Source: an uncultured Candidatus Cloacimonadota bacterium
GTDB lineage: Bacteria > Cloacimonadota > Cloacimonadia > Cloacimonadales > JAJBBL01
Direction: 5' to 3'
NCBI GenBank assembly: GCA_964464175.1
Contig: CAYXFD010000013.1
Coordinates: 8,391-72,390 of the forward strand
Length of the DNA stretch: 64,000 nucleotides
Part shown: one piece after another, positions 1 through 42,412 of the stretch
Numbering within the stretch: the first letter of the stretch is position 1
How the letters are laid out: each line of letters starts with the position of its first letter
Program-made: the position numbers and the translations under genes
Notes under the pieces: generated by a model
The model's database searches: none
What the model was told of the DNA's origin: nothing
The model's input: the letters and a program-made list of their open reading frames with translations, nothing else

Positions 1-156
1 AGCAAAGCAAATATCAATTTTGAGATTATCAGGCATCTGACTCGAATATGGAGCCAAAGGGGGTTTATAAGTATCCGCCAATACGAAGCTTTATCTAATC
101 AAATCAATCTGATCGGGGCTCAGATAGGGGGTTGGAAAAAAAAAGATGGAAAATAA
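1..156 (+). CDS. avd: Accessory variability determinant (Avd-like four-helix-bundle protein), C-terminal fragment; 5' end outside window
   Basis: The frame-1 translation has no stop from base 1: SKANINFEIIRHLTRIWSQRGFISIRQYEALSNQINLIGAQIGGWKKKDGK*. The stop is at 154-156. The helical heptad-like sequence ends in the basic IGxxxGGWxK tail typical of Avd / 23S-rRNA-IVS family proteins. It ends 2 nt before the RT start codon. Confidence 0.65.
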   Translation, partial: SKANINFEIIRHLTRIWSQRGFISIRQYEALSNQINLIGAQIGGWKKKDGK

Positions 157-158
157 CG

Positions 159-1238
159 ATGCCTAAGAGGATTGGCTATCTTTACGAAAAGATTTATGAT
201 TGGAGCAATCTCTTAAACGCTTATCATAAAGCCGGAAGGTCAAAAAAAGAGAGACCGGATGTATTAGGCTTTGAGTTTGATTTAGAGAACCAATTGGTTC
301 TGATCCAAAGAGATTTGAAGGCTCAGGCTTACAGATTCGAGGGGTATCACAAATTCAATATTTATGAACCGAAAGAGCGAACTATCCATTGTGCTCCCTT
401 TAGAGATAGAGTAGTACATCACGCCATTAGCAATATCCTTAATCCGATCCTCGATCGCAGTATGATTCCGGACACTTATGCCTGCAGAAACAATAAAGGA
501 CTCCATCGTGCCTTAAAAAGGGCATTCTACTTCTACAGAAACTCTCGCTACTGCTACAAATTTGACGTCAGGAAGTTTTTCTACACAATTGATCATGAAA
601 TCTTGATGAGGAAAGTTTCCGGAAAAATCAAAGATCCGAAATTGTTGAATCTGCTGAGAGAGCTCCTTAATACATACGATAGCGGTATCGACTACTATTT
701 TCGTTTTGAACAAGATGATCTGATTGATATGATGAGGAACAGGGGTCTTCCCATAGGTAATCTAACAAGCCAAATCTTCGGAAACTTTTTCCTTTCTGAT
801 TTAGATCACTTTATCAAAGAGGATTTGAGACAGAGGTCTTATATACGTTATATGGATGATGCTTTAGTTTTTGCAGAAAACCTGGAAGAGCTTAAAACTG
901 CTAAATCTAAGATCACAAACAAATTAGCTGAAGACCGTCTGTTCATTCATCCCGATAAAAACATAATTAGCAATGTAAAAAGGGGGATCAATTTCTTAGG
1001 GTTCAGATTTTTTCAAGATCAGATCAGACTTCAGAATAAGAATCTCGTTAGATTCAAGAAAAAGCTAAAAAAAAGAGCACAACTGAACCTCTCTTATGCT
1101 GAGCATTTACTTAGTTTAAACGGACATTTGGGGTTTATTTCTGCCGGTAACACATTTAGGATTACGGAGATAGTATTGTCGGAAGTTGAGTTTAACCACA
1201 ACCAAAAAAAATACAGTTTTACTTTACAAAGGGTATGA
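159..1238 (+). CDS. DGR-type reverse transcriptase
   Basis: RT motifs are present: RTIHCAPFRDRVVHHAI, YKFDVRKFFYTIDHEIL, LPIGNLTSQIFGNFFLSDLD and SYIRYMDDALVF (YMDD catalytic box). LPIGNLTSQ is the I/LGxxxSQ motif-4 signature of DGR RTs. The N-terminus MPKRIGYLYEKIYDW is typical, so ATG 159 is preferred over the TTG at 132 given in the ORF track. Confidence 0.9.
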   Translation: MPKRIGYLYEKIYDWSNLLNAYHKAGRSKKERPDVLGFEFDLENQLVLIQRDLKAQAYRFEGYHKFNIYEPKERTIHCAPFRDRVVHHAISNILNPILDRSMIPDTYACRNNKGLHRALKRAFYFYRNSRYCYKFDVRKFFYTIDHEILMRKVSGKIKDPKLLNLLRELLNTYDSGIDYYFRFEQDDLIDMMRNRGLPIGNLTSQIFGNFFLSDLDHFIKEDLRQRSYIRYMDDALVFAENLEELKTAKSKITNKLAEDRLFIHPDKNIISNVKRGINFLGFRFFQDQIRLQNKNLVRFKKKLKKRAQLNLSYAEHLLSLNGHLGFISAGNTFRITEIVLSEVEFNHNQKKYSFTLQRV

Positions 1239-1380
1239 TACGAACATTAGAGCCGTTTTGCGTGGCGGGTCGTGGAACAACAACGACAACAACTGTCGTG
1301 TTGCCAACCGCAATAGGAACAATCGGTCAAACACCAACAACAACAACGGGTTTCGTGTTGCCAAGACTGTTTTTTGCCGG
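1225..1380 (+). repeat. DGR template repeat (TR), approximate boundaries; non-coding RNA template
   Basis: It starts at the RT stop codon. Read in the 1186 frame it gives YDTNIRAVLRGGSWNNNDNNCRVANRNRNNRSNTNNNNGFRVAKT, the C-terminal loop of an FGE-sulfatase/C-type-lectin fold. There are 12 AAC and 2 AAT codons within the 24 codons at 1276-1347, the adenine-rich pattern used by DGR mutagenic retrohoming. Exact ends cannot be set without the VR. Confidence 0.75.
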
Positions 1381-1661
1381 AATCGCTGTTCTAATAAAAC
1401 AGGAGAGAGCAAGAGAAAAGAGTCCAGTATCTTATCCTGTGCCCACAGAGCCGAAGTATATGATGAAGGTTAGTAGCAGAGTCGAAAGCCGGAAATTTTA
1501 TGATGTATTCGATTTTTAAGAATGCAGGCAACTTAGCTTGTTTTTGGAGTTAATAGGTTAACCGGATAGGATTTGCTGAAATTCGGGTGTATTTAAATAA
1601 GGAATGAATTCTTTATTGACGTAAGACGATAGTTATTAGTTCGAGGAATCGGGAGTTATTT

Positions 1662-2603: not shown

Positions 2604-2807
2604 TAGGGCTACATAAACCGGAAGATTGAGTTATGAGAAAGTATCAATAATTTCGATGGAAGATTAAGAATTCTAAAACTTGGGCACATATTAGGCACAC
2701 AATATTTTGTAATTTAGTCATTAGGTCGGACACAAATACTTGCTAACATATTGATAAAATTATATATAGGCATACATATATAGCAGTCCCCAAAGAGTTG
2801 CTTCTTG

Positions 2808-2856
2808 TGATTCGTAATCAGTAGGTCGGGGGTTCGAATCCCCCTTTTAGCTCCAG
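2808..2856 (+). pseudogene. tRNA-Thr(CGU)-like 3' fragment (anticodon loop to CCA) with no 5' half; putative att-site scar
   Basis: The sequence is tga-TTCGTAA-tca-gt-aggtc-GGGGG-TTCGAAT-CCCCC-ttttagc-t-cca. It has a 7-nt anticodon loop with U33 and A37 and anticodon CGT, an AGGTC variable loop, a perfect T-arm with a TTCGAAT loop, a 7-nt acceptor 3' strand, a discriminator and an encoded CCA. Pairing breaks down upstream of 2808, and no D-arm or 5' acceptor strand (gctaaaa) exists within 120 nt. Confidence 0.55.
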
Positions 2857-3609
2857 TTTTAAATCTCTTCTATTCAGTCACTTATATCACTTCTTAGTCT
2901 AATCATTGCAGTATTTAGGGAATCAATATACAACATGTCAGTAACTATTTCTGAAGATAAGGTACCAGATATCCTGTTTGAACTTGTTGGTCAAATATTC
3001 TGCGGATGCATTCTGGATTAGCTGACAGAATCAAGAATAGGGTAAAAAAACAAGCTTGTGAGGTCTTTTCTGTAGCTGATGCATAGATTGCAGCCTTAAT
3101 CAAGAAAGGTTGGATTTGTCCCGCCACAGGAGCCTATTCAATGCTTCGCTTGCCTATTCCTCTATCATACCTTCTTTAGTTTTTCTTCTTAGTATGGCTC
3201 AAAATATGCCGGGTAGTCTTCTCTCTGAGTGAGTGGATAGGATACCCTTATCGCATTTATCTGAGAGAAGACTCAGCAAAATGTCTGCGAGAAAATGAGT
3301 GTATTCAGTGCTGTAGCTGAACCCATGGAGAAAACAGATAGTATAAGATACGTGATGCCTTATCTAAAACGATAGAGAATCCGGACCAGCGCTCCCTATA
3401 CTCATTATCTATTACTGCATCACAGCTAATAACTGCAACATAGTCAGCCGTTGTTATCTCAATTTTTTCGCGGGGTTTGGGAAGAACATATTCTCCTGTT
3501 CACGTTAACTCTACCCTAAGTAATGGCTCGTTGACGAAGTCATTGATAATAATCTGGTTATCAATGATTTTTCCAATAGTCTGAAGAGTGAAGCGGAGGC
3601 AGATAATCA

Positions 3610-8283: not shown

Positions 8284-8484
8284 AATCTCTTTTCTCCTTT
8301 CGGCAACATATCTAATTTAGAGCTCAGTTGTCAAAATAAAAAAGGAAATTTCTCTTTATCAAGAACTGCTCCAAAGAAATATCTTGTTCAAATGTTCCTA
8401 TGAGTAGTTTTAGTACAAACAATACCCGTAACTAAACTATCTTTTCCCTGTTAGAGGGATAATTAGATCAGAGGAGAAAAGGAG

Positions 8485-10021: not shown

Positions 10022-12820
10022 ATGAAGCATGTTTTTTTATTATCGTTTATCTTATTATTGACAGTAGTCTTGTTTGCAGAATCGGTTGATCATGATACCG
10101 CTCTAACTGCAGCAAGTAACTGGTTGAATCATCAAAACAATTTAAGGGGCAATTACCCGGATCTTTCAGTTAAGGACTTTTACATCCATCGACTTGAAGG
10201 TCAAATAATCTTTTATGTCTTTGATTTCGAACCGCAAGGTTTCGTTATGGTAGCCGGAAGCGATGCCTCAAGTCCAATTCTCGGTTACAGTGTATCGGGT
10301 TCGAGTAGTTTAGGTGATTTCCCTCCTAACGCTGCCTCATTCTTCTCGATCTATGAGAGAGGCATGTTGGATATCAATAATAATGAATTATCAAATGAGT
10401 ATTCTATAGGTGACTGGGAAGCTATTTTGACCGGGAACATTCCTTCTCCCCATCGCTCACGGGCAGTATCACCGCTGTTGTCAACTCAGTGGAATCAGAA
10501 CTATTCATGGAATACATCATGTCCTGCTGATGTCAACGGTCCGGGTGGTTACGTTTATGCCGGATGTCCTGCAGTAGCAGCGGCACAGGTAATGAACTAC
10601 TGGGAGCATCCGGACCAGGGCACCGGTTCACACTCTTATACTCATACCCAATACGGTTTACTCTCGGCAAATTTCGGAACTACTACCTATGATTGGTCAA
10701 GCATGTCTGATACCACTCCCACGAATTCAATCAGACAGCTGCTATTTCATCTTGGTGTTGCAACTGAGATGGACTACGGTCCTTATGGTTCAGGAGCTTA
10801 CTCTTCTGATGCCCGGGATGCTCTGGTAGATTTTTTTGATTATGATGCTTCAGCTTCATTAGAGTGGAAGTATAATTATTCTCACAACGAGTGGATATCG
10901 CTTCTCAAAGAACAGTTAGATAACAGTTACCCTTTATTCTATCATGGTTATGACTCAACTCATAGTTCCGGACATGCCTTTAATTGTGACGGCTATGATG
11001 CCAGTGATAATTTCCATTTCAATTGGGGTTGGAGTGGCAGTTATGACGGATATTTCAACCTCAATAGTCTTAATCCGGGAAGTCATGATTTCAGTTATTT
11101 ACAGGCAGCGATTGTTGATGTATATCCAGCATCGCAGCTTCCCGCTCCCCAGAACTTAACCGGCTATGCAGGCGGGGCAAAGGTATTTCTTTCCTGGTCA
11201 GCTCCCGCTTCCCGTTCCCTCCAGGGATATAACGTTTACCGTTTTGGGACCAAGATCAACCAGAGCCTGATAAACGGGTTGGAATACGAAGATACAGATG
11301 TTATGAGTCCCGGTATTTATCAGTATTATGTAACAGCAGTTTATGATTCGGGAGAATCCGGAGCTTCGAATACTGTTACCATGGAAACCTATAATCCTTT
11401 ATCCCTACCATTTTCGGAGAACTTCGATACAGTTAGTGAAATCCCTGTTTATTGGCATTTAGATGATCACATTGGCAACGGTCAGGTGTGGCAGGTAGGA
11501 ATTGTTTTCGGAGGGTTAGTGACAAGCGGTAATTATGCTTTTCTAAACAGCCATAATTACGGGTCAGGTAATACTCAGAATTGTGACCTGATAACTCCCG
11601 TTTTAGATCTGACGAATTACCGTAATATTCAGCTCTCTTTCAGCCACTATTTCAAACAGAAAGCGCTCTCTTCCACAGCAACTCTGTCTTATAGTTTGGA
11701 TAATGGTGCTTCCTGGACAGCGATAGACTCCTGGACAGACGATACTGCTAATCCGGATTTCTTTAGTTCTTTTATTTCTGCTGTAGATAAGGAATCTGAA
11801 GTCAGATTCAAATGGAATTATACCGGTACATGGGGTAATTACTGGTGTATAGATAATATTGATATAGTCGGGGAGGAATTAGTCATTCCGCCTGAAGGAA
11901 CAATGGTTGAAGGCTTTTTCTTTTCACATGACAATCCAGAATCGATCTCTTACGATCCCGAACCCGCAGATCCGCCGGATCCTCCGGAAGATTACAATAA
12001 TCTACTGTTAATTGGAGTTTCCGGTTCAGGACTAGTTCAGTTCACGATATCGGCAGATCCGCAAACATCTGGGTTTTACTATGTATCAGGAGGATGGTCG
12101 GCACCACATGCCTGTATTGATAACGAGATTGTCTTTAATATCGATTTTGGAAGAGGCGACGCTTATATCTTTCTTGGTGATGAAGATGATCCTCCGCTTC
12201 CGGTAGAGCTTTCTTCCTTCACTGCTAATATTACTGCCGATATGTTTGTGAACCTCGAATGGCGGGCAGAGTCAGAAACTAATATGCTTGGCTATAACGT
12301 GTTTCGCGCTTCGGAAGACAGTGTTACAGAAGCTGCGAAAGTAAATCCGGTTACGATTGAAGCCCATAATGAAAGTGTAGCAACTGACTATTATTATGTT
12401 GATCAGAATGTCTTTAGTGGTCAAGAATACTACTATTGGCTGGAGTTGATCGATCTCGATCTGACAACTAATTTCCATGGTCCTGTTTATGTCTTTGTGA
12501 ACGAAGATGAGGAATCAGGAACAACGCCGGTTCTTCTTGAAACCAGACTGATCGGAGCTTATCCCAATCCTTTCAATCCTGAAACCGCTGTAAGGTTCTC
12601 TGTCGCAGAAACTACAAAGGTATCTATCACAGTTTACAATCTGCTCGGACAAAAGATGCAGTCTCTTTTGATTAACGAACTCTACGATAAAGGAAGACAT
12701 TCAGTTGTCTGGAATGGAAGGGATGCCGATAATCAACCTGCTGCTTCCGGGATTTATTTCTACAGAATGAAAACCGATGACGGTTTTGAGGATTTCAAAA
12801 AAATGCTCTTGCTGAAGTAG
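10022..12820 (+). CDS. Secreted C10-family (streptopain-like) cysteine peptidase with T9SS-type C-terminal sorting domain
   Basis: It has a signal peptide and an N-terminal inhibitor-like prodomain. The catalytic Cys context is YVYAGCPAVAAAQVMNYWEHP and the His context is SSGHAFNCDGYD. The C-terminus is IGAYPNPFNPETAVRFSV...GIYFYRMKTDDGFEDFKKMLLLK. Confidence 0.8.
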   Translation: MKHVFLLSFILLLTVVLFAESVDHDTALTAASNWLNHQNNLRGNYPDLSVKDFYIHRLEGQIIFYVFDFEPQGFVMVAGSDASSPILGYSVSGSSSLGDFPPNAASFFSIYERGMLDINNNELSNEYSIGDWEAILTGNIPSPHRSRAVSPLLSTQWNQNYSWNTSCPADVNGPGGYVYAGCPAVAAAQVMNYWEHPDQGTGSHSYTHTQYGLLSANFGTTTYDWSSMSDTTPTNSIRQLLFHLGVATEMDYGPYGSGAYSSDARDALVDFFDYDASASLEWKYNYSHNEWISLLKEQLDNSYPLFYHGYDSTHSSGHAFNCDGYDASDNFHFNWGWSGSYDGYFNLNSLNPGSHDFSYLQAAIVDVYPASQLPAPQNLTGYAGGAKVFLSWSAPASRSLQGYNVYRFGTKINQSLINGLEYEDTDVMSPGIYQYYVTAVYDSGESGASNTVTMETYNPLSLPFSENFDTVSEIPVYWHLDDHIGNGQVWQVGIVFGGLVTSGNYAFLNSHNYGSGNTQNCDLITPVLDLTNYRNIQLSFSHYFKQKALSSTATLSYSLDNGASWTAIDSWTDDTANPDFFSSFISAVDKESEVRFKWNYTGTWGNYWCIDNIDIVGEELVIPPEGTMVEGFFFSHDNPESISYDPEPADPPDPPEDYNNLLLIGVSGSGLVQFTISADPQTSGFYYVSGGWSAPHACIDNEIVFNIDFGRGDAYIFLGDEDDPPLPVELSSFTANITADMFVNLEWRAESETNMLGYNVFRASEDSVTEAAKVNPVTIEAHNESVATDYYYVDQNVFSGQEYYYWLELIDLDLTTNFHGPVYVFVNEDEESGTTPVLLETRLIGAYPNPFNPETAVRFSVAETTKVSITVYNLLGQKMQSLLINELYDKGRHSVVWNGRDADNQPAASGIYFYRMKTDDGFEDFKKMLLLK

Positions 12821-15004: not shown

Positions 15005-15736
15005 ATGAAATGGTTTGTATTTCTTTCAATGCTTTTTTTCTTGACCGGGTCGCTGGCTGCCCTTACAGGTTTTGGAGATTCAACAATAAATGTTGAGTTG
15101 GATGAAACAATACCGGATGATCCTTTACCGGTTGAACTATCGTCATTCACAGCAGCTCTTACTTCTACACGGTTTATTGAGTTACGTTGGGTCTCAGAGG
15201 CTGAGTATAGTATGTTGGGCTATAATGTCTATCGTGGTATAAATGGGGATTTATCGGAAGCACTGAAGATTTCATTAGAGATTATTCCGGCATATAACTA
15301 CTCTTTTTCTACTAACTACAGCTTTGTTGATGAAGACGTAGTTGCGGGGAATGTCTTTTTTTACTGGCTGCAAGCTGTTAATCTCGATTTGACGAACAAG
15401 TATTTCGGTCCTTTATCTGTAATCATTGATGATCAGGAAGAAGATACTCCTTTGATCTTTATCACCTCATTAGGAAAAAACTATCCGAACCCTTTCAATC
15501 CCAACACAATTATTGAATACAGTATTAGAGAAGAGACCGAAGCAGTTTTGAGAATCTATAATGTACGGGGTCAGATTGTAAAGACACTTTTCTCAGGGGT
15601 AAGAGAAGCGGGAAATTACCGGGAAAAATGGAACAGTATTGACAGTCAGGGTAGAGAGGTTGCATCCGGAGTTTATTTATATCGGCTTACGACCGATCAC
15701 TATGACAGAATCAATAAGATGCTACTTGTCAAGTGA
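15005..15736 (+). CDS. Small secreted protein: LPVELSSFT module plus T9SS-type C-terminal sorting domain
   Basis: It has a signal peptide and the module DDPLPVELSSFTAALTSTRFIELRW...GYNVYR...FFYWLQAVNLDLT. The C-terminus is NYPNPFNPNTIIEYSI...GVYLYRLTTDHYDRINKMLLVK. An RBS (ggagga) is present. Confidence 0.75.
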   Translation: MKWFVFLSMLFFLTGSLAALTGFGDSTINVELDETIPDDPLPVELSSFTAALTSTRFIELRWVSEAEYSMLGYNVYRGINGDLSEALKISLEIIPAYNYSFSTNYSFVDEDVVAGNVFFYWLQAVNLDLTNKYFGPLSVIIDDQEEDTPLIFITSLGKNYPNPFNPNTIIEYSIREETEAVLRIYNVRGQIVKTLFSGVREAGNYREKWNSIDSQGREVASGVYLYRLTTDHYDRINKMLLVK

Positions 15737-15754: not shown

Positions 15755-18700
15755 ATGAAGCAGTTTCTAATATCGATCTTAGTCGTATTGTATATACCGA
15801 TTCTATTTGCTCAGACAATAGGGGATCCCCCTGTAGTTTCGAACGTAGTCATGTGGCAGAACCAGAACAACGGGTTGATTTATGTTACATATGATTTAAG
15901 TATTCAAGCGAACCCAGTTCCTTGTCATGTGACCCTGGTCATCTCAGGAGATGAAGGAGTGAGTTTCAAAATTCATCCCTTGCCTGAATTTATAGAAGGC
16001 GATTTCGGAGATTATGTAACAGTAGGAACAGGCAAACAGATAATCTGGGACATCTACCGGCAGTCTCAAGCATTAGGTTCTCAGGGTGTATTCGGTAATA
16101 CTTACCGTGCCCGGGTTATAGCCCGCCGCAATGATTTTAATCCCGTTAATCCAGCACCGGCAGGGTTTGTTTCTATCGAGGGTGGTACGTTTCACAATGG
16201 CACGTCCAATATAACGATCAGCAGTTTTTACATTGACCGTTATGAGGTTACCCAAGTCGAATATGAAGCAGTTATGGGTACGAATCCTTCGGATTTCAGC
16301 GGAAGCAGTAATCTCCAGCGTCCGGTGGAGCAGGTATCCTGGTTCAATGCTATCGAATACTGCAACCGAAGAAGTATGCAGGAAGGACTAATACCTTGCT
16401 ATAGTTACAGTACTTTTGGCACTAACCCTGATAACTGGCCAGTAGGATGGGATTTTTTGCCAAACCACACCAATGTAACCTGTAATTGGAACGTTAATGG
16501 GTACCGTTTGCCTACAGAAATGGAATGGATGTTTGTTGCTAAGGGAGGTAATCAGAGCCAGAACTACACCTACAGTGGCAGTAACACAATTGATTTAGTT
16601 GCGTGGTATTATGGTAACTCAGATATCGGTGATGGGCAAGGAAGGCGCTCTCACGAGATAGGCACCAAAACCCCAAACGAATTGGGTATCTATGACATGA
16701 GTGGAAATGTTTGGGAGTGGGTGTGGGATATGTTCAGTTATGATTATCCCAGTAACGATCAGACAAATCCGACGGGTCCAAGTGTTGAAGGAACACGTGT
16801 TGTGCGTGGTGGTTGTTGGAATCAAACAGACAATAATTGTACCAATTCAACTCGAGGTAATAGCAGCGCAACAATTGATTTCAACACTCACGGCTTTCGT
16901 ATTGTCAGAAGGTTTTCTATGGAAACGGTAGCGACCCCTGTATTTTTTCCTTCTCCTGGAACCTATGCCAGTTCTCAGATGGTCAGTATCAGTTGTTCCA
17001 CACCGGGAGCTACGATCTACTACACGACCAATGGTAGCGAGCCAAACACTAATTCCACTATCTATACTGGTGCGATAACGGTGAATTCGAATACCACTGT
17101 CAAAGCCAAAGCTTACAAAGCGTCATTTATTCCTTCGGATGTTGTCGAAGGTATCTACATCATCAATACTGCCCCTGCGAACATGATATTGATATCAGGC
17201 GGAACTTTTACCATGGGCAGAACTACCGGTACAGGAGGCGGCAATGAACTTCCGACGCACAGCATAACTCTGAACTCGTTTTACCTGGGAAAATATGAGA
17301 TTACTCAAGGAGAGTATGAAGCAATCTTGGGCTCTAATCCAGCCTCCGGTGCTGGTGAAGGAGAGGACTTTCCCGTTTATGAGGTGAGTTGGTATTCTGC
17401 TATCAAGTATTGCAATCTTCGCAGTATGGCTGAAGGTCTTGTTCCGGCATATACCATAGATGGCTCTACAGATCCTGGAGATTGGGGAGCAGTTCCTGAG
17501 ACCGGTAATGCCACCTGGGATGCAGTAACTTGTAACTGGAATGCCAATGGTTATCGCTTACCTACAGAAGCGGAATGGGAATATGCCGCCCGGGGAGCAG
17601 TCAACAATCCTGACTATCTCTACAGCGGATCGGATGACATTGACGATGTGGCATGGTTTGAAGGAAACAACAATCCGTGGGGAACAAAACAAATCGGTCT
17701 CAAAGATCCTAATGTATTAGGATTGCATGATCTGAGCGGAAACGTGATTGAATGGTGCTGGGATTGGTATTCCTACTCTTATTATAGTGAAAGCTCAGCA
17801 AATAATCCTACCGGACCTTCCACAGGCACTTACAGGATTGCCAGAGGTGGCGATTGGTCTCTGCCTGAAAACAGCAGCCGTGTTTCAGCTCGAGGTTTTG
17901 CCAATCCTGAGCATAGAAGTCTAAATTTTGGTTTCCGGGTTTGCTTTAATGCGCCAACAGTTGCCACACCTACTATCTTTCCAGTCGGTGGTACTTACTA
18001 CACCAGCCAAAGTGTAACCATCGACTGTTCCACAAATGGTGCTGCTATCTACTATTCCATCAACGGCAGCGATCCCGATGAAAACTCCACCCTTTATAAC
18101 GGGCCAATTTCTCTAAGTTCAGATACAATGCTTAAAGCGAAGGCCTATATGACAAACTGGGAACCGAGTGGCATAGCCAGTGCAGAATATACATTTGATA
18201 CCATACAGGATAGTCTCATATTAGTTCAAGGAGGCACTTTCCACAATGGAGTTTCCAATGTTACTCTCTCATCTTTTTTCATTGATAAATATGAAGTTAC
18301 TCAGTCAGAGTATTTGGCTGTGATGGGAACAAATCCCGGCAGCAATAACTCAGAGCATGGCGATCCGCTTAATCATCCGATCAACAATGTCACTTGGTTC
18401 AATGCTATCGAGTACTGTAACCGCCTGAGTATAATAGAAGGGTTGACTCCGGCATACAGCTACAGTAATTACGGTACTAATCCTGATGATTGGCCTTCCG
18501 GTTGGAATACAAGTAGTGGCAATCATACGAACGTATCCTGTGACTGGTCAGCGGATGGTTATTGTTTACCTACTGAGATGCAGTGGGAGTATGCTGCCCG
18601 TGGTGGGATACCTGCCCAGAATGCAGGGACATTTAACGATACTTATGCCGGAACTGATGTTCAGGGTACTGGAACGGGGCAGTTAGGGGATTATGCCTGG

Positions 18701-19027
18701 TATATAGCTAATGCAGGATTAGATTTACCTGGTGGTAGTACAGCTCCTGATTATGGTACTCATCCAGTTGGGACTAAATTACCTAATGAGTTAGGAATTT
18801 ATGATATGAGCGGCAATGTATGGAACTGGGTATGGGATATTCATGGTTCCTATCCCAGTGGTTCATATACAAATCCGACGGGTTCTGTAAGCGGTGCAGA
18901 GCGTGTGTGTCGCGGCGGCGGCAGTGACGCTCAAGCCGTTAACTGCACTGTTTCGAATCGTGGCGACTACTACGCTACGGGCTACAGTGTCAGCATTGGT
19001 TTCCGGATCAGCAGAAAAGTTCCTTAA
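15755..19027 (+). CDS. Triple FGE-sulfatase (SUMF1) / C-type-lectin-fold domain protein with two chitobiase/FN3-associated-type linkers
   Basis: Three copies of the FGE-domain motif set occur: Y.VTQ.EY, W(F/Y)(N/S)AI(E/K)YCN, NGYRLPTE.EWE, GNVWEW and GFR. The linkers are ATIYYTTNGSEPNTNSTIY...VKAKAY and AAIYYSINGSDPDENSTLY...LKAKAY. It has a signal peptide and a strong RBS (aaaggagg). It lies 19 nt after the preceding gene. Confidence 0.85.
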   Translation: MKQFLISILVVLYIPILFAQTIGDPPVVSNVVMWQNQNNGLIYVTYDLSIQANPVPCHVTLVISGDEGVSFKIHPLPEFIEGDFGDYVTVGTGKQIIWDIYRQSQALGSQGVFGNTYRARVIARRNDFNPVNPAPAGFVSIEGGTFHNGTSNITISSFYIDRYEVTQVEYEAVMGTNPSDFSGSSNLQRPVEQVSWFNAIEYCNRRSMQEGLIPCYSYSTFGTNPDNWPVGWDFLPNHTNVTCNWNVNGYRLPTEMEWMFVAKGGNQSQNYTYSGSNTIDLVAWYYGNSDIGDGQGRRSHEIGTKTPNELGIYDMSGNVWEWVWDMFSYDYPSNDQTNPTGPSVEGTRVVRGGCWNQTDNNCTNSTRGNSSATIDFNTHGFRIVRRFSMETVATPVFFPSPGTYASSQMVSISCSTPGATIYYTTNGSEPNTNSTIYTGAITVNSNTTVKAKAYKASFIPSDVVEGIYIINTAPANMILISGGTFTMGRTTGTGGGNELPTHSITLNSFYLGKYEITQGEYEAILGSNPASGAGEGEDFPVYEVSWYSAIKYCNLRSMAEGLVPAYTIDGSTDPGDWGAVPETGNATWDAVTCNWNANGYRLPTEAEWEYAARGAVNNPDYLYSGSDDIDDVAWFEGNNNPWGTKQIGLKDPNVLGLHDLSGNVIEWCWDWYSYSYYSESSANNPTGPSTGTYRIARGGDWSLPENSSRVSARGFANPEHRSLNFGFRVCFNAPTVATPTIFPVGGTYYTSQSVTIDCSTNGAAIYYSINGSDPDENSTLYNGPISLSSDTMLKAKAYMTNWEPSGIASAEYTFDTIQDSLILVQGGTFHNGVSNVTLSSFFIDKYEVTQSEYLAVMGTNPGSNNSEHGDPLNHPINNVTWFNAIEYCNRLSIIEGLTPAYSYSNYGTNPDDWPSGWNTSSGNHTNVSCDWSADGYCLPTEMQWEYAARGGIPAQNAGTFNDTYAGTDVQGTGTGQLGDYAWYIANAGLDLPGGSTAPDYGTHPVGTKLPNELGIYDMSGNVWNWVWDIHGSYPSGSYTNPTGSVSGAERVCRGGGSDAQAVNCTVSNRGDYYATGYSVSIGFRISRKVP

Positions 19028-19305: not shown

Positions 19306-20352
19306 TTACTTCAGCAGCAGCATTTTCCGGGTTTTCTTGGCACCAGAGGAGGATTCCAGAGCATAAATGTAAATACCTGAAGAGAAGCGGGCAGCATTCC
19401 AATGATAGGAATGAGAGCCTTCCCCGAATTGTTTTTGCAGTAATTTCTCTCCTTTCGGATTATAGATAGTGAGTACCCCGGTTTCTCCCCAATTTATCGA
19501 AAAAGCGATTGTTGTTGACGGGTTGAAAGGGTTCGGAGAGTTCTGTAATAATTGAGTTTCGGGAAAATCGATTGAGCTGTCGTCATCACTGCTGTTGGGA
19601 AACCAGATCAGTCCGGCAAATTCCGGGTAATCGATAAAGGGATTTCTGTTTTGCTGATATTGATAATAGATGACATCATTACGGTATAGTTCCCTGTCAT
19701 CAACCGGATCTTCTGTATGCCATTGATAGAGAGTTGACAATACTCCATGGTAAGGCTCATTATTGGGGGATGAGGGGGCATAATCAACAAGTTCCAGGTC
19801 AGGTTCGCCAAAGCCTCCTTCATATCTGACTGCCATGTAGAACATCATTCGGGCAACATCACCCTTGTCTTCAGGGCGCGGTTCCCAGGTATAGGTTGTG
19901 GTATAGCATCCTGTCGGACCGTCAGGATCTATGTATTCAATTCCGCCGTTATCGAAATCCTTGTTACCGCGAGCCGAATTGACCGAAATATCGGAAGCCC
20001 GGACATGATGCACATCTGTTCCGGCTCCCATAGAAGTTCCGAAATCACCGTGGGAAACAGCCCAGACATGTTCCCGGTTCCAACCGTTTCCGTTATTGTA
20101 TTCCTGCGCGGCATCCACCGACCAGCCTGTATAGATGAGAATAACGTTAGCGGGATTATCAGGGTCTCTGTCGGTAACCTTAAGGATATCCCATGTTTGT
20201 GAGTAGGAGAATTGAATATGATCTTTGATGATATGGTGAAGAGCTGATTTCAGTTCACCGCCGGTTAAGTTCTCTGTTCCGTTGTAATAACCTTCCGGGA
20301 TCTGAGCCTGCAACAGTGAACCGAGAAACAACAAAACAACAATATATTTCAC
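19306..20352 (-). CDS. Endonuclease I family extracellular nuclease with T9SS-type C-terminal sorting domain
   Basis: It has NREHVWAVSHGDFG and DVHHVRASDISVNSARGNKDF (Endonuclease I / extracellular RNase active-site motifs). The C-terminus is NSPNPFNPSTTIAFSI...GIYIYALESSSGAKKTRKMLLLK. It uses a GTG start with a gggagg RBS. Confidence 0.8.
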   Translation of the reverse strand: MKYIVVLLFLGSLLQAQIPEGYYNGTENLTGGELKSALHHIIKDHIQFSYSQTWDILKVTDRDPDNPANVILIYTGWSVDAAQEYNNGNGWNREHVWAVSHGDFGTSMGAGTDVHHVRASDISVNSARGNKDFDNGGIEYIDPDGPTGCYTTTYTWEPRPEDKGDVARMMFYMAVRYEGGFGEPDLELVDYAPSSPNNEPYHGVLSTLYQWHTEDPVDDRELYRNDVIYYQYQQNRNPFIDYPEFAGLIWFPNSSDDDSSIDFPETQLLQNSPNPFNPSTTIAFSINWGETGVLTIYNPKGEKLLQKQFGEGSHSYHWNAARFSSGIYIYALESSSGAKKTRKMLLLK

Positions 20353-20673
20353 AAAACCTCCCTTTCGTTGAGGCAGAAAAAAAACATGAGGTTATATTCT
20401 GTCCATAAAAATCTTAAAGGGTCTTTTTTGTTTAATGAGTTGTGAAACCGGTTATGATCTTATTAGATATGCACTTATATGAGTATGTGGCAGGCATAGC
20501 AGGCAAGTCTGTAATGCCTGAACAGTTGGCGGAGAGATAAAGCTGCTGAGATATCTGAAAAATAGAAGAAAAGCAAAAAAAAACTTGACCGATTACTCTC
20601 TATCTTACCAATGAACGGCAAATTGCTGATGGCTTTATTTTTTTATGAATGGAAAAAAGGAAATGATCTAATT

Positions 20674-23600
20674 ATGGGGAGCTGTACGGACAAGGTTATT
20701 CTACTAATTGATAGTGATGATAGAGCTGCGAATGACCTGAGAAGGGTCATCGAGAAGTATGGCTACAGCGTTATAATTGCTGATAGCGGCAAAAAAGCTC
20801 ATGAGGTTATCGACTCCGATACTAATATTGACCTTGTAATGCTTGATGCTTCCCTTGATAAGGGAACAGATGTTATAGCTACGGCACAATCTATACTTGA
20901 TAAAAGAGATTTACCCTTGATTTTTCTGACTACCGAAGGTTCGGAACACGAGATAAGAAAGAGTGAAAATATTGTTACCTACGGGTTTATAGATAAGGGT
21001 TCGAAAGCATATCTTGTTATAGCCACTATAAAGACTGCATTAAGAATATATGAAATACAGCGAAAACTATGGACACATGTCAATCGTAACGCGGCACTCA
21101 TCCGGGTAATCCCCGACCTGCTTTTTGTCATTGACCGGAATGGGTTTTACCGTGAGATTTATGCCTCTGACGATGACTTGCTTGCTCTACCACCGGAAGA
21201 GCTCATCGGGAAGTCACTCTCCGCTGTTTTTTCCCAGGATGCTGTTAATAGTTTTCTGGAATCATTCCGGGTATGCCTGGAGACAGGAAAACTTCAGGCC
21301 TTAGAATACGAGTTAACTGTCAATAAGGAGCGCAGGTTCTTCAGGGCGAGAATAACAAGATTCAATGAGGATAGTGTTTTATCTGTTGTTCAGGATATAA
21401 CAGAGAGCAAAAAGGCAAAGAATAAGATCGAAAGTTTGAACTCGCTGCTTCTGTCCATTCGTAATGTTAATCAGCTAATTGTTCAGGAAGATGATCTTTT
21501 GGCTGTAATGAGAGGAGCGAGTGAGATTCTCGTTGAGACCTGGCAATATCTGAATATCGAGATCTCGCTCATTGATGAGAGGACAGGAAAGATATCTCCG
21601 GTAACCAGTGCCGGAAAGTTAGGACACGGAGACTGGTTTGTTATTCCTGAAGTAGATGGAAATGCTCCCACGTGTATTAACGATGCCGTAAAAGAAAGAA
21701 GGACAATAGAATTAGAAGATTATCAAACATACTGTAAGGACTGTCCCTATTTTAGCATAGCTTTTCCGCATAAAAAAATAGTCATCCCTATGCTTGAAAA
21801 TGATCAACTAATAGGCCTAATGTGTGTCTCCACCACACCCGAACAAGTCTTCTTTGCCGAAGAGATAGAACTGCTGGAAGAGGTTGCAGCCGATCTGGTA
21901 TATGCCGGAAAGAAGCTGAAAGCCGAACAGAAGATCAAAGAGAAGAATCGTCTGTTAACGATCCTGAATGATTATTCAATGGAATTATCCTCCGTTACCG
22001 TATCAAATAATATTTATTCTCTGATTTCGCATAAGCTAAAAGAGATAACTAATGCAAAGTTTGTTTCGATATCGATCTATGAGGAAAAGACTTCGAGTTT
22101 GATTGTAAAGTTTACCACGATATCTGAAGAGAGTAATAAGAAATTGTCCGGAATAATTGGCAGAAAACTGGAAGAACTTCGTATGAAAGTAACACCAGAG
22201 ATGTACCGCCGGATAACTCAGGAAGTTGTTGGTGACGCAGGCTCTCTTGAGGAGACGACTTTTGGGTCTATCCCAAAAGTAGTTAGCAATATGATTCAAA
22301 AGGTTTTCGGTGTCGAGTGGTTTACCGGAATTGCGCTCATGCATAAAGAGAGTCTGGTGGGCACAGTAGTCATCATTGGAGATAAAGAAACAAAAAGACC
22401 GGACAACGAAGATCTAAAGGCTTTTGCCGGAGTTACAGCAAATGCTCTGCAGAGATGGAAAGCCGAAAAATCTCTTCTGGAGAGTCACAGTAAATGGCAA
22501 TTTGCCCTGGAAGGGACTGGTGATGGTATCTGGGACTGGGACATCGAGAATGGAAAGGTTAACTATTCCGCTAATTTGAAGAAAATGCTCGGATATGAAG
22601 ACAATGATCTGGAGAGTACAATGCAGCAAAAGGAAAAACTCATCCACTCCGAGGATCTGTCTCACTACCGGAAGAAACTTCAGAGTCATCTGAAAGATAA
22701 AACAGCATTTTTTTCCGACGAATGCCGGATGCTATGCCGGGACGGCAGCTACAAATGGGTTTTAGACCGGGGAAAAGTAATCAGGAGATCAGCAGGGAAA
22801 AGCCCCTTGAGAATGATCGGAGTTCAGACCGATCTCTCTTATCTAAAGGAGACTGAGCAGGAACTGCGGGAGAGTGAATACCGTTATACTACGATCGTAA
22901 ATAATGCTTATGACGGGATAATTCTGCAGAATGCCCAGGGGGAGATATTAACCTGGAATAAAGCAGCTGCCAGAATACTCGGTATTTCGGAAAAAAGAGT
23001 AGTCGGGCATACTTCACTCAACCGGGAATGGGATACTATCAGAGAAGATGGTTCTGCTTATCCCAAAGAAGAGCATCCCTCCATGATAACCCTCAAAACC
23101 GGCAAGCCGTGCAGGAATGTCATAATGGGATTCAAGAAAAGATCGGGCAAGGTTACCTGGATCAATATCAATACCAGTCCTTTATTCAAAAGCGAGGATC
23201 CCCAACCTTATGCAGTAATTATCTCTCTCTCAGACATTACGGAAATAAAAAAGGCAGATAAATCTTTGAAGGAGAGTGAGTTAAGATACCGCTTGATCTT
23301 TGAAAATTCTAAAGATGCCATGATGACTCTGGAACCACCCACCTGGAGATTTACCTCCGGAAATTCAGCGATCTTCGACATGTTCAAGGCAAAGGATTTA
23401 GCTGAGTTTACAGCCTGTGAACCATGGAAACTCTCTCCTGAAAAACAACCTGACGGAACGTTATCAGAAGAAAAAGCAAAGAGAATGATCGAGATAGCAA
23501 TGCGAAAAGGTTCCAGCTTTTTCGAGTGGACTCATAGAAGACTGACCGGAGAAGAGTTCTCTGCTACTGTCTTGCTGACCAGAATTGAAATGAGCGGGTC

Positions 23601-26600
23601 GAGATTTCTTCATGCAACTGTCCGTGATATCTCCGAACGGAAAAGAGATGAAACGATAAGAATTATCCAGGCTAATATTGCCCATGCTGTTTCTGTTGCT
23701 GAATCACTTTACGAGTTGTATGAGATAGTCCGGGAGGAATTGAGTACTTTACTTGATACCAGGAACTGTTTTATTGCTTTCTACGATGAAACAACCGGTA
23801 TGTTTTCCACTCCTTTCGAGAAAGACGTTAAAGACTCAATAAAATCCTGGGCTGCCGACGGTTCTTTAACAGGATATGTGCTCAAAAGGAAGAGAGCTAT
23901 CCTGCTTAGCAAAGAAAGGATCGAGAAAATGGCAGAAGCCGGCAGGGTCAGGAAGATTGGAACAACGGCAGAAAGCTGGTTAGGGGTACCAATCAAGATC
24001 GACGGTAAATATAAGGCTGTTTTCGTTGTGCAAAATTATAAGAACAAGAATGCTTACGACAAAAACAGTGTAGAGTTGTTAAGACTTATTGCCGAGCAGT
24101 TGAGTATCTATATTGACCATAAGAAGGCAGAAGACAAGCTGGCAGAAGAGAGAAAACAGCTGCTGTCGATATTTGACAGTATCGATGAAGCGATCTATAT
24201 TTCTGATCCTGAGACCTATGAGATATTGTTTGTTAATAAGACCCTAAAATCGGTTTTCGGAAAGGACCTGATCGGTGGGATTTGCTACCGGGAACTACAA
24301 AACCGCGAAACTCCCTGTGAATTTTGCACGAATGACAAAATACTGAAAAATAAGGGTTCATCCTATAATTGGGAACACAATAATCTCCATCTGCAAAGAG
24401 ATTTTCTGATAACCGACAAGATTATCAAATGGACTGACGGGCGTGATGTCCGTTTTGAGATAGCCAGAGATTTTACAGAATCCAAAAAAGCTCAGGAAAG
24501 AGTTAAGGATTTAAACTCATTACTAATGGCAATCCGGAATGTCAATCAGTTGATAGTTCAGGAAGATGATCTGTTCAAGGTGATGCAGAATTCCTGTGAA
24601 ATATTGCTGGAGACCAGACAGTATCTGAATATCGAGATCTCCTTATTAGATGAGAGTGAGGAGTTTATCAGACCTTATGCCACTTCCGGTGAACATGAAA
24701 AATCTGACTGGCAGATTTCTCTCACCGGAGAAGGTTCTGTGCTAAAGTGTATCAAAGAAACGGTATTGACAGGAAAATCAGTTGTTGTCTCTGATCCGGA
24801 TAACTATTGCCGGACATGTCCCGAGATAAATGATGATTCTCTGCATGAAACAGTAGTAATTCCGATAAGCCAGAATGAACGGCCTGTCGGGCTAATGCGC
24901 ACCTGTATGATACAGGGACATAAGATCACTCAGGATGAGATCGATCTGCTGGAGGAAGTAGCCGGTGATCTGGGTTTTGCCCGGGCAAAGATTTTAGCCG
25001 AGAAGAGTCTGCAAAGCAGTGAGGAACTATTCCGGAATCTCTATGAAAACGCTACTATCGGGATTTACCGGACAACCCCTGAGGGGGAGATCCTTTTAGC
25101 CAATCAGTCTTTGATCACGATGCTCGGTTTTGAGTCGTTCGAAGAGCTGAAGAATCGTAATCTGGAAAAAGATTATTTCGAAGCGAGGTACAGCAGAAAG
25201 AGTTTCAGAGAACGGCTTGACCGCGAAGGTTTTGTCAAAGGGTTGGAAACATCCTGGAGACTGATGAACGGCAAGATTATCACAGTCCTGGAAAGTGCCA
25301 GAGTTATCCGTGATAACTCAGGAAATCCTCTTTATTATGAGGGTACTGTGGAAGATATTACTGATAACAAACGGGATGCTGTCATCAAAGAAGTTCAGTA
25401 TAATATAGCCCATGCCGTTGCTTCAGCGAAAGATATCAGTGAACTGTATGAGATAGTAAGAGACGAACTCGCCAAATTGATCGATACTACCAATTTTTAT
25501 ATAGCCCAGTATAATGTAGCTGCCGATGAGTTTTCTTCCCCATACTTCATCGATGAAAGAGATAATATTGCAGTCTGGGATGCGAAGAAATCTTTAACCG
25601 GCTATGTTTTGAAGCAGAAGAAAGCTGTTTTAGTGAATAAAGAAGAACTATTGAAGCTTTATGAAATGAGAGAGGTAGATCTAATCGGGGAAGTGGCTGC
25701 AAACTGGTTAGGTGTACCTGTCAGGATTACCGGAAATGTCTGGGGTGTTATTGTAGTTCAGAGCTATGAAGAAAAGGATATCTATGATGACCACAGCATC
25801 AGAATCCTGGAACTGATAGCCAATCAGTTGAGTATTTATATAGAGCGGAAGCTTGGAGAAGAGAGCCTTCAGGAAAGTGAACGGAAGCAGGCTGCACTTT
25901 TGGCTAATTTACCCGGTATGTCCTATCGTTGTAAGAACGACAGAGATTGGACAATGGAATTTGTTAGTGATGGTTGTCTGGATCTGACGGGTTATAGACA
26001 GGAGGAACTGCTGCTTAATGAGAAATTGTCCTTCAATGAGTTGATTTTTCCCGAGTATAGGGAAATGCTTTGGGAGAAATGGCAGGAAATTTTAGCTCGA
26101 AAGGAAGATTTTGCCGGCGAGTACAAAATCCTAACCAAAGATGGTCAGGAGAAGTGGGTATGGGAACAAGGAAGCGGCGTCTATACGGAAGAGGGTGAAG
26201 TGATAGCTTTGGAGGGGTTTATTACCGATATTACAGAGCGAAAACAAGCAGAAGAGGATAGAGAGGTATTAGAGGCTAAGCTCATTCAGGCTCAGAAGAT
26301 GGATGCAATAGGCAGACTTGCCGGTGGCGTTGCTCACGATTATAATAACATGCTCGGTGTTATTCTTGGTCACACGGAAATGATCCTGGCGGATATGGAT
26401 CCCCATGATCCCAATTATCCTAATCTGAAAGAGATAAAAAAGGCGACGGAGAGATCAGCTGATCTGACTAAACAGCTTCTGGCTTTTGCCCGTAAACAGA
26501 CAATATTCCCTAAAAAACTTAATCTGAACAGCAGTATTGATGATATGCTCAGAATGTTGCAGAGACTGATAGGGGAGAACATAGAGTTATCCTGGAAACC

Positions 26601-40651: not shown

Positions 40652-42412
40652 ATGAAAATTAGTACAAGATTTTCTTTCTTTATTTTACTCTTGGTTTTAT
40701 TGCTTGGAAGTTCTACTTTTTTATGGTCTCAATCACTTACTTTTGATATTACCGATCTTCAGGGAGTGCACCGTTGGGCTCCGATAAAAGGACCTCATAT
40801 CTTTACTGTCTATACCCCGGCTCCCGTGATGGTTTTTGCCTGGTCAGGTTTTGACTGGTTAGATGGGGTTACAGAGTCGGTGTTTATCGAATCAGAAGGG
40901 GTTGATGATCTATTGGGAGTTGATCCGGTAGTTGAAATGTATGTTAGCGGCTTTGATCTGCACTCTCTGGAATTCGTCAATGTCGTAAATTTTGGGGGTG
41001 ATCCCTTTACCCCGGGCGAGAGAGGGGATTTCCGTATTTATACAGGCGGCACAGCAACTATGCATTTGAACGGGGTCAAGATCGCCGAAGCTTCTAATTT
41101 TCAGGTAGATATCCTGGTCTCATATCCTGTTATCGGCGGAGGTCCCGGACAGCTTGCTCAAGCAGTCGGGGTAGCAGATATAAACATGGCAGAGACAGAT
41201 CCTGATTGGGTAGTGAGATTTGATAACGGAAGCGGACAGTTTGAATTCGAATTTGAAAACTTTACTGCCGGGATCGGTCCTAATCACGATACAACCGTAA
41301 CAATTTTAAGCAGGGATGTTCACACAACAGTTGATGATGCTATTTTAGTTGCCGACGATACGGTTGATTTTGATGCCTCAATAGGCGTAGTAGTAGATTT
41401 TGAATTCACTGATCCGATGGTCTATGATGAAGGGGCTGGTGAGGTAGAAGTTGTTAAAACGCTAACGGTAAATAAAATATATGGAGATGCAGGTGGAGTA
41501 CTTCCTGCAGAAGTACTTTCCTTCAATAGCCAATTTTATTACCGTTTCGGAGCTGTTTTAGATGGTTTTCAATGTGATATTACTTTTGATCTTTCTGAAG
41601 TTCCTAATCTTCCCACTGATCTGGAAGATGTTGTGTTTATGAGAAGACCGAAACGAGCACCTCAGGATTATGTTTGGGAAGTTATACCTAATGAGATAGA
41701 AATTCTCTCAGTCACACCACCAAGACTGTTAGTAAAGGATGTTACCGGTTTTAGCGAGTGGGGAATCGGCTTCTTAACAGACGATTCATTACCGGTAGAA
41801 TTGAGTTCTTTTACCAGCAGTGTTACGGCTAACGGTTTTGTAGAGCTGACCTGGATAACAGAAAGTGAAAGCAATATGCTCGGTTATCATATTCATCGGG
41901 CTGAAGATAACAATGTAGCCTTGGCAGAAAAGATTACCGGCGAGGTAATTAATGCCGAAAATTCATCGACCACGGTTTATTACAACTATACCGACAAAAA
42001 TTTACCTACAGCCGGTACTTACTACTATTGGTTAGAGTTTGTGGAGTTAGACCTGACTTCCGGTTTCCACGGACCAATCTCTGCAGTAGTATCTTTTGAT
42101 AATGATGATGATACTCCGGGAATAGTATATAGAACAGAGTTGATCGGTGCTTTCCCTAATCCTTTCAATCCTGAAACTTCGATCGAGTTCACTTTAGCTG
42201 ATCCTTCCCATGTTACTTTGAGAATCTTTAACAGCAGGGGACAATTGGTTAAGGAGTTACTTGCCAATGATCAATTAGCTGCAGGTTTTTACTCGGAAGT
42301 TTGGGATGGAAGGGATAACTCAGGGGCTTCAGTAGGCTCAGGAGTATATTTCTACCGGATGAAGGTTGATAATAGTTACGATATGATTAAGAAGATGGTG
42401 CTTGTTAAGTAA
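40652..42412 (+). CDS. Secreted hypothetical protein: LPVELSSFT module plus T9SS-type sorting domain
   Basis: It has a signal peptide and SLPVELSSFTSSVTANGFVELTW...GYHIHR...YYYWLEFVELDLT. The C-terminus is IGAFPNPFNPETSIEFTL...GVYFYRMKVDNSYDMIKKMVLVK. Confidence 0.75.
   Translation: MKISTRFSFFILLLVLLLGSSTFLWSQSLTFDITDLQGVHRWAPIKGPHIFTVYTPAPVMVFAWSGFDWLDGVTESVFIESEGVDDLLGVDPVVEMYVSGFDLHSLEFVNVVNFGGDPFTPGERGDFRIYTGGTATMHLNGVKIAEASNFQVDILVSYPVIGGGPGQLAQAVGVADINMAETDPDWVVRFDNGSGQFEFEFENFTAGIGPNHDTTVTILSRDVHTTVDDAILVADDTVDFDASIGVVVDFEFTDPMVYDEGAGEVEVVKTLTVNKIYGDAGGVLPAEVLSFNSQFYYRFGAVLDGFQCDITFDLSEVPNLPTDLEDVVFMRRPKRAPQDYVWEVIPNEIEILSVTPPRLLVKDVTGFSEWGIGFLTDDSLPVELSSFTSSVTANGFVELTWITESESNMLGYHIHRAEDNNVALAEKITGEVINAENSSTTVYYNYTDKNLPTAGTYYYWLEFVELDLTSGFHGPISAVVSFDNDDDTPGIVYRTELIGAFPNPFNPETSIEFTLADPSHVTLRIFNSRGQLVKELLANDQLAAGFYSEVWDGRDNSGASVGSGVYFYRMKVDNSYDMIKKMVLVK

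Follow-up and report, generated by a model that had tools for sequence, protein, structure and literature searches.

Diversity-generating retroelements (DGRs), in which a reverse transcriptase (RT) transfers sequence from a template repeat (TR) to the variable repeat (VR) of a target gene, have been described in a variety of layouts. Wu et al. (2018, PMC5758913) catalogued a class of targets with kinase domains, placed the Treponema cassette in an architecture that includes an HRDC accessory gene, and found target domain composition to be the fastest-changing DGR feature. Targets in which a Ser/Thr kinase is joined to a domain of the C-type-lectin type (CLec), as well as dispersed paralogs, are common among cyanobacterial DGRs (Vallota-Eastman et al. 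2020, PMC7517822), a 2024 survey reports targets annotated as Pkn1/PknD and a cluster of Cloacimonadota DGR RTs (PMC11661182), and remote targets and unequal VR activity have been documented in Thiohalocapsa PB-PSB1 (Dore et al. 2024, PMC10907252). At the RNA level, an Avd-binding stem-loop followed by adenosines and a 'cPRT Stop' duplex have been described for phage BPP-1 and 207 other DGRs (bioRxiv 10.1101/2023.10.23.563531). Here we analyze the left end of a 64,000-nt stretch of contig CAYXFD010000013.1 (the window), which very probably holds the right-hand half of a complete DGR of the order target(VR)–avd–RT–TR, with the main VR located off the left edge. Judging from its sequence, the DGR is genuine and probably active. 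Its avd–RT–TR layout, its kinase targets, its remote targets and its silent VR all have published precedents; the uncommon features are the domain make-up of the targets, the kinase/FHA/PP2C context and the contrast between active and frozen VRs, not the layout of the cassette.

The exact RT protein of the window is encoded on 16 public contigs, four of which were fetched: a 72.9-kb ENA contig (L001, in which window position 1 is position 3886), contigs from the JGI metagenomes 3300034686 (L002) and 3300033178 (L003), and a Logan contig (L004). Compared to the window, they display 0 mismatches across overlaps of 2.8–11.2 kb. The core genes and the TR follow one another in the order avd, RT, TR, all on the + strand (Table 1), which is architecture B2. 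The window opens inside avd: frame 1 of positions 1–153 reads ...QINLIGAQIGGWKKKDGK, also given as ...QYEALSNQINLIGAQIGGWKKKDGK, and the stop codon occupies positions 154–156. The full gene, which starts 177 nt left of the window (open reading frame, ORF, at 8286–8618 in L002), encodes 110 aa, and its product both passes the NCBIfam model NF033474 DivGenRetAVD (96.7 bits, cut-off 80) and matches Pfam PF22296 bAvd (7e-21). The RT gene begins with an ATG at 159, 2 nt past the avd stop, and ends with a TGA at 1236–1238. The RT contains the motifs IRYMDDALVF, GLPIGNLTSQIF and LPIGNLTSQ, and its best match in the PDB is the BPP-1 RT (bRT, 8ub7; 2e-47, 165 bits, residues 2–333). On the strength of this closest solved relative and of the motifs, we assign the RT to the DGR type. 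The preliminary description of the window had proposed an Avd-like tail ending 2 nt before an RT that carries YMDD and LPIGNLTSQ and belongs to this type, and both proposals hold.

The TR is non-coding and reproduces the final 39 codons of an FGE/C-type-lectin domain. It starts 13 nt past the RT stop codon, in a region where one frame reads AVLRGGSWNNNDNNCRVANRNRNNRSNTNNNNGFRVAKT. An FGE-like TR had been placed right at this stop codon, over positions 1225–1380; the TR is indeed there and lies inside that span, but it does not abut the stop and its extent is 1252–1368, and the span includes flanking RNA elements as well. The same description had noted that no VR was in view, and had deduced that the target must lie upstream of avd, beyond the window, or be remote. 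In agreement with the former point, an ungapped, A-tolerant scan of both strands of the 64 kb revealed no copy of the TR with fewer than ~28 non-A mismatches, and a general repeat search of the window only detected a short echo internal to the TR segment. By contrast, extending the sequence leftward brings up VR1 (L001 3422–3538), 1715 nt upstream of the TR, whose end is located 347 nt left of window position 1 and 9 nt ahead of the stop codon of a kinase gene. Aligned with the TR, VR1 has mismatches at 20 of the 35 adenines and at 0 of the 82 other positions (Fisher p = 2e-13); the mismatches are thus confined to TR adenines, as anticipated. The sequences that follow the repeats also differ: the TR reads ...GCCAAGACT-GTTTTTTGCCGGA and all four VRs identified (see below) read ...GCCAGGACT-CGTTTATGATTAC, with GTTTTTTGCCGGA and CGTTTATGATTAC as the respective flanks, and the last TR adenine (1364) is a G in every VR, an asymmetry that looks IMH*/IMH-like. 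Note that public gene calls put a 94-aa ORF over the TR and the spacer (window 1235–1519 and 1186–1473, +); we rejected it as a gene, as it has no family match and only exists through the TR copying a coding sequence.

The VR1 target is a 721-aa protein with a zinc ribbon at its N-terminus, followed by a Hanks-type Ser/Thr kinase domain, one hydrophobic helix (residues 356–380) and a PASTA domain; at its C-terminus is an FGE-sulfatase domain (Pfam, 1e-57), the best solved match of which is TvpA (2y3c, 3e-50). This organization is that of a membrane receptor kinase, whose FGE-lectin domain is predicted to lie outside the cell. The protein resembles the PknB/Stk1-type PASTA receptor kinases in topology but is not an equivalog of them: it does not pass the PASTA-kinase equivalog model NF033483 (260 bits vs a cut-off of 450), and it has a single PASTA domain followed by the FGE-lectin domain. 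Among its 120 best homologs, the Pkinase+PASTA+FGE combination is only found in its own cluster.

Different versions of VR1 occur on an otherwise identical background. An NCBI contig of 77,433 bp encodes an RT identical to that of the window together with six identical downstream proteins (the FHA protein, a FakA-like protein, a permease, an RsbU-like regulator, TldD and a DUF1295 protein). The target encoded on this contig, P0003, is identical to its counterpart P0001 over the first 517 residues, and a protein-level comparison shows 14 differences within residues 689–712, all of them at TR-adenine codons. More generally, adenine changes alone are enough to reach the whole VR peptide of P0001, P0003, P0007 or P0008 from the TR, and a fifth peptide, that of P0035, contains one residue out of their reach (W for S), which results from a single C-to-G change in VR4.

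The gene of the VR1 target is one of two tandem paralogous genes upstream of avd. The other one encodes a 605-aa protein with a zinc ribbon, a kinase and an FGE domain but without transmembrane helix or PASTA domain, and carries VR2, which differs from the TR by 20 A mismatches, one non-A mismatch at its 5' edge, and insertions of 2 and 1 nt that shift the frame of a 10-nt block. No second TR that would account for the 3 extra nucleotides was found in the window, L002 or the second locus described below (L092/L093). VR2 appears frozen, i.e. no longer updated; consistent with this, it is the same in the two assemblies just compared, whose 605-aa paralogs differ at 10 residues, none of which is in VR2. 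A strong GC-rich hairpin, probably a terminator, follows VR1 and VR4 and is absent after VR2. We considered the lack of this hairpin as the cause of VR2 inactivity and rejected it, since VR3, which is fully cognate, also lacks it.

A search for target homologs uncovered the second locus, represented by L092 and L093, in the metagenome that contains L002 (3300034686) and in a sister sample. The locus has 40.5% GC (41.3% for the window), no RT is present on either contig, and its paralogs are 78–92% identical at the DNA level to the kinases of the window locus. Two VRs are found there: (i) VR3, which differs from the TR at 14/35 A and 0/82 non-A positions and belongs to a 624-aa cytosolic kinase–FGE protein; (ii) VR4, which differs at 20/35 A and 1/82 non-A positions and belongs to a 739-aa PEGA/CarboxypepD_reg–FGE protein with a signal peptide. 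Fisher p values across VR1, VR3 and VR4 range from 2e-13 to 5e-9. From this match between repeats, we propose that the same TR serves at least two remote targets, the cytosolic kinase–FGE protein and the secreted PEGA/CarboxypepD_reg–FGE protein. The alternative location of the target envisaged in the preliminary description, a remote one, thus also finds its counterpart, in two further cognate VRs on another contig of the same metagenome.

We compared the surroundings of the TR with those of related elements. An RT-alignment scan of metagenome contigs yielded 80 related loci, and altogether 54 loci showed a TR/VR pair. Of these, 16 have the TR after the RT and 38 have it before; the avd–RT–TR order, initially viewed as a departure from the usual one, is therefore neither new (architecture B2, PMC5758913) nor isolated. 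The locus with the nearest RT among GTDB representatives (L005) has the same target–avd–RT–TR order, with a lipoprotein as the target, and shares the RT→TR order with 14 other related loci. As for the targets, the locus studied here is the only one with kinases among the 57 VR-bearing ORFs found at related RT loci.

In an alignment of 12 loci, the sole near-invariant block is CCAG, within a GTCCAG-motif region that, in 10 loci, is located +49 to +57 nt past the TR end. This region can form a covarying duplex of 10–13 bp with the immediate 5' flank of the TR in 9 of 11 related RT→TR loci (e.g. GGGGATAAGCCC/GGGCTTATTCC, AGGTCAAAGCGC/GCGCTTTGACCT and GGGTAGTCGCC/GGCGACTATCC). In the window, the corresponding duplex (1231–1241/1427–1437) is the outermost helix in both the minimum free energy (MFE) and the centroid folds of 1226–1445. 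A local CAGG/CCTG hairpin, predicted for the conserved motif by RNAalifold alone, was rejected: it is the long-range duplex with the TR 5' flank that covaries. A hairpin is also present in related loci at the position of the stem-loop that lies just 3' of the TR, with compensatory double changes in 6 of 11 predicted pairs. No family was found in Rfam for the RNA that flanks the TR. The 3' boundary of the presumed DGR RNA, ~1510, is approximate and was set by analogy with BPP-1, the spacer of which is ~140 nt long. By the same analogy, we propose that the 1231–1241/1427–1437 duplex is the counterpart of the 'cPRT Stop' duplex and that the 1386–1402 stem-loop is the counterpart of the Avd-binding stem-loop. 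The RNA layout at the TR of the window agrees with the published model (10.1101/2023.10.23.563531) and provides this recently proposed TR-flanking architecture with independent comparative support, in an RT-before-TR order unlike that of the Bordetella phage model.

Table 1. Features of the DGR and of its immediate downstream neighbor (window coordinates)
Feature	Position	Strand	Basis
avd, 3' third (last 51 codons + stop)	1–156	+	Frame-1 translation
RT of the DGR type, 359 aa	159–1238	+	Pfam RVT_1 (2e-24); YMDD and IGNLTSQ motifs intact
5' strand GGGTATGATAC of the TR-enclosing long-range duplex; spans the RT stop codon	1231–1241	+	Pairs with 1427–1437, 10/11 positions
TR, 117 nt, 35 adenines, 14 AAY codons	1252–1368	+	Homology to VRs
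TR-specific 3' flank GTTTTTTGCCGGAATCG	1369–1385	+	Alignments with VRs
Stem-loop CTGTT-CTAATAA-AACAG, just 3' of the TR	1386–1402	+	Fold
Purine/A-rich linker GGAGAGAGCAAGAGAAAAGA after the stem-loop	1402–1421	+	Sequence; A-rich in relatives too
Conserved GTCCAG motif and duplex 3' strand GTATCTTATCC (1427–1437)	1422–1437	+	Alignment of 12 loci
Rest of the presumed DGR RNA toward its 3' end, spacer-like	1438–1510	+	Weak similarity to relatives (GGTTAGTAG... / GGTGAGTAGG...)
Zinc-ribbon/FHA-domain protein, 313 aa	1662–2603	+	Pfam FHA (1e-8), DZR, Zn_Ribbon_1

If the DGR had decayed, its RT, Avd and TR would be survivors and its VRs fossils of past diversification. The VRs are identical in all the fetched contigs, which stem from four samples, and VR2 is clearly a fossil, with its +2/+1-nt indels and with a sequence that is the same in two assemblies even though the remainder of the protein is not. 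Nevertheless, we hold decay of the whole element to be very unlikely: the RT, Avd, the TR and the flanking RNA elements are all intact, a different VR1 version stands beside an RT and six downstream proteins that are all identical, and three VRs display 0–1 non-A differences per 82 positions while the surrounding paralogous DNA is 78–92% identical, a disparity that points to recent copying from the TR. The similarity between the TR and the VRs might alternatively stem from ordinary gene conversion among FGE-domain paralogs, without any reverse transcription. These paralogs do exchange sequence, as suggested by the FGE scaffold that P0003 has in common with P0035, and the kinase paralogs are 78–92% identical; yet gene conversion does not restrict differences to the adenine positions of a non-coding copy, and it leaves unexplained why an adenine-loaded (AAY)n template should lie beside an RT–Avd pair. 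We give it next to no credence. Just as little can be granted to the idea that the RT is of the group II intron, retron or DRT/UG type and that the Asn-rich segment behind it is a degraded fragment of an FGE-domain gene. It is true that the JGI label of the protein is 'retron-type reverse transcriptase', that its top NCBIfam match is a group II intron RT/maturase model, with no DGR-specific RT model among its NCBIfam matches, and that PADLOC RT models match it too. However, these are domain-level matches only, under every curated cut-off (129 vs 300 bits for the group II model TIGR04416, 50 vs 235 bits for retron_St85_RT, 55 bits vs 390/200 for the Drt2/3a models), and among solved structures the BPP-1 bRT leads by a wide margin: the top group II intron RT match (GsI-IIC RT) only reaches 7e-21 (78 bits) and retron-type RTs 2e-17. 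Furthermore, an avd gene abuts the RT gene, and Rfam scans of L002 and of the window detect neither a group II intron RNA nor a retron RNA. Nor would a fragment of a pseudogene depart from three intact copies only at its own adenines (p ~1e-13), a pattern that already refutes this reading.

Several observations nonetheless weigh against the presence of a complete and active DGR with targets at two loci. L001–L004 are mutually base-identical upstream of the window as well, VRs included. Residues 501–680 of P0003, which form its FGE scaffold, are 100% identical to those of the secreted paralog P0035 (L092 1–2107); P0003 may reflect recombination of FGE modules between DGR targets, or a chimeric assembly. 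L092/L093 and L002 do not overlap end to end, and it is from the shared sample, GC content, paralogy and TR cognacy, without a physical join, that we infer L092/L093 to belong to the same genome as the window. In the window itself, the TR-enclosing duplex is marginal (dG −14.7, reached by 19 of 500 shuffles; z = −1.7 for the whole RNA), and its 5' strand lies 10 nt further from the TR than in the related loci. Finally, the nearest RT in GTDB representatives, that of L005, a Cloacimonadota metagenome-assembled genome (MAG), is only 53% identical, and the nearest named homologs of the kinases are found in Delongbacteria and Cloacimonetes MAGs.

Assuming a complete and active DGR, transcription, priming and cDNA homing could proceed as follows. 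The RNA of about 1226–1510 would be transcribed, probably as part of the avd–RT message; the 1231–1241/1427–1437 duplex would bracket the TR, and the stem-loop and the A-rich tract just 3' of the TR would recruit and position the RT–Avd complex. The RT would then copy the TR into cDNA, misincorporating opposite adenines, and the cDNA would take the place of the matching VR of 117 nt, at the 3' end of the target genes. Up to 20 A-containing codons (14 AAY) would be re-randomized in this way in the ligand-binding face of the FGE-type CLec domain. One may go further and imagine that a single TR programs a paralog family of phospho-signaling sensors distributed over three compartments (the PASTA/FGE receptor kinase facing outward, zinc-ribbon kinase–FGE proteins in the cytosol and the secreted PEGA–FGE protein) which, together with the flanking FHA readers and a PP2C eraser, constitutes a DGR-tunable network for Ser/Thr signaling or for the sensing of invaders. 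A defensive role comes to mind because, at the domain level, the kinases are similar to PD-T4-6, Mad6 and Stk2, which are anti-phage kinases. We regard this extension as rather unlikely; if true, an uncultivated lineage of the FCB group would possess a sensor network analogous to diversified immune receptors that feed into a kinase cascade, but of bacterial origin.

The gene next to the DGR encodes the zinc-ribbon/FHA-domain protein (Table 1), likely a phospho-Thr reader that would act as a partner of the diversified kinases and not as a DGR component. An FHA protein and a PP2C phosphatase are also encoded upstream of the kinases (L002 183–3544). Further downstream, the gene-free interval 2604–3609 contains a fragment that resembles the 3' half of a tRNA (2805–2851, +), with a T-arm (GGGGGTTCGAATCCCCC), a 3' acceptor strand and CCA. 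ARAGORN found no complete tRNA across the window, and Rfam only gives a weak match of the fragment to the 3' end of tmRNA (E = 1e-3). This fragment could be what remains of the site at which an element integrated (attachment site), in which case the DGR and the kinase cluster would lie on an island.

The kinase paralogs have another peculiarity, a leader of ~190 nt consisting of four or five consecutive perfect hairpins with repeated CAATGTATCAAAGGC...GCCTTTGACCAA and CCAGAGCATCCTGCTCTGG units (L002 3655–3860 and 5765–5958; L093 8551–8681 and 15853–15978). It is located upstream of the paralogs T2, T1 and P0006 and, once, downstream of P0007. Its MFE is −74.8 kcal/mol (z = −8.0), a value reached by none of 200 shuffles. 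The leader has no match in Rfam and is absent from the window and from distant homolog loci; a spurious 77-aa ORF has been called on it. It may be a palindromic repeat element or an RNA that acts in cis as a regulator.

Arrays of two to six zinc-ribbon–kinase–FGE paralogs are also present in a Delongbacteria MAG (L094, JAFGEE010000191) and a Cloacimonetes MAG (L095, JAIORE010000260), where they are interleaved with PP2C, FHA, SLT, LpoB-like and Peptidase_C1 genes and resemble the L092/L093 neighborhood. No RT is in view near these arrays, and the C-termini of their products are too diverged to reveal whether they are remote DGR targets.

The rest of the window is rich in signal-transduction genes. 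They include those for a 2269-aa PAS/GAF hybrid histidine kinase (20611–27420, +), which displays an internal duplication at a 3075-nt spacing, and for an 1828-aa fusion of a Ser/Thr kinase, TPR and HATPase_c domains (57107–62593, −). A 1090-aa protein encoded at 15755–19027 (+) contains three FGE-sulfatase domains along with CHB_HEX_C_1/Fn3_assoc domains; with about 30 or more non-A mismatches per domain end, its FGE domains were rejected as cognate VRs. Several large proteins carry repeated C-terminal segments that match type IX secretion system (T9SS) sorting tails (Por_Secre_tail / CHU_C; 12428–12609, 42020–42201, 15469–15501, 19520–19552 and 63150–63182), and these tails point to an organism of the FCB group; NCBIfam scans of ten proteins of the window yielded no taxonomic marker. 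The preliminary description regarded the DGRs of this candidate lineage as poorly characterized; in fact, Cloacimonadota-like DGRs and Ser/Thr-kinase targets had already been surveyed (PMC11661182, PMC7517822).

Altogether, the locus is a clean multi-target addition to the small set of DGRs that diversify signaling enzymes, and not surface adhesins or phage tail fibers. A single template would serve a PASTA receptor kinase in the membrane, a kinase in the cytosol and a protein that is secreted, and the neighboring VR2 illustrates how a VR drops out of a DGR system. The general understanding of DGRs is left unchanged.

Compared to BPP-1 (mtd–avd–TR–brt; bRT–Avd–RNA structures 8ub7–8ube), the locus has a homologous RT (2e-47) and a homologous Avd, a similar A-specific transfer from the TR into the last ~40 codons of a protein with the C-type-lectin fold, and, 3' of the TR, an RNA in which a stem-loop and adenosines are accompanied by a duplex between upstream and downstream segments. 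It differs from BPP-1 by the position of the TR, which lies between avd and the RT gene in the phage and after the RT gene here, and by its targets, a tail fiber in the phage vs kinases and several targets, including remote ones, here. In addition, the locus looks chromosomal rather than phage-borne, because housekeeping-type genes follow it. The variable domain of Treponema denticola TvpA (2Y3C) belongs, as here, to the FGE-sulfatase subtype of the C-type-lectin fold, but TvpA is a lipoprotein without a kinase domain. With the DGRs of Thiohalocapsa PB-PSB1 (PMC10907252), the locus shares targets in trans, unequal VR activity within one DGR and Pkinase/FGE-CLec target domains; the targets of this multicellular purple sulfur bacterium are mostly STAND-NTPase proteins of conflict systems, whereas no NTPase or effector domain was seen in the targets described here. 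As in the cyanobacterial DGRs (PMC7517822), an N-terminal Hanks-type kinase is fused to a C-terminal VR-bearing CLec domain, and paralogs with varying TR/VR homology occur within and beyond the DGR locus; unlike in these DGRs, the lineage is FCB-like, as judged by the T9SS tails, the main target is a transmembrane PASTA receptor kinase, and FHA and PP2C genes flank the cassette. The closest correspondence is with architecture B2 of Wu et al. (2018, NAR, PMC5758913), which has the same core order and a single Avd accessory, so that only the domain composition of the target differs.

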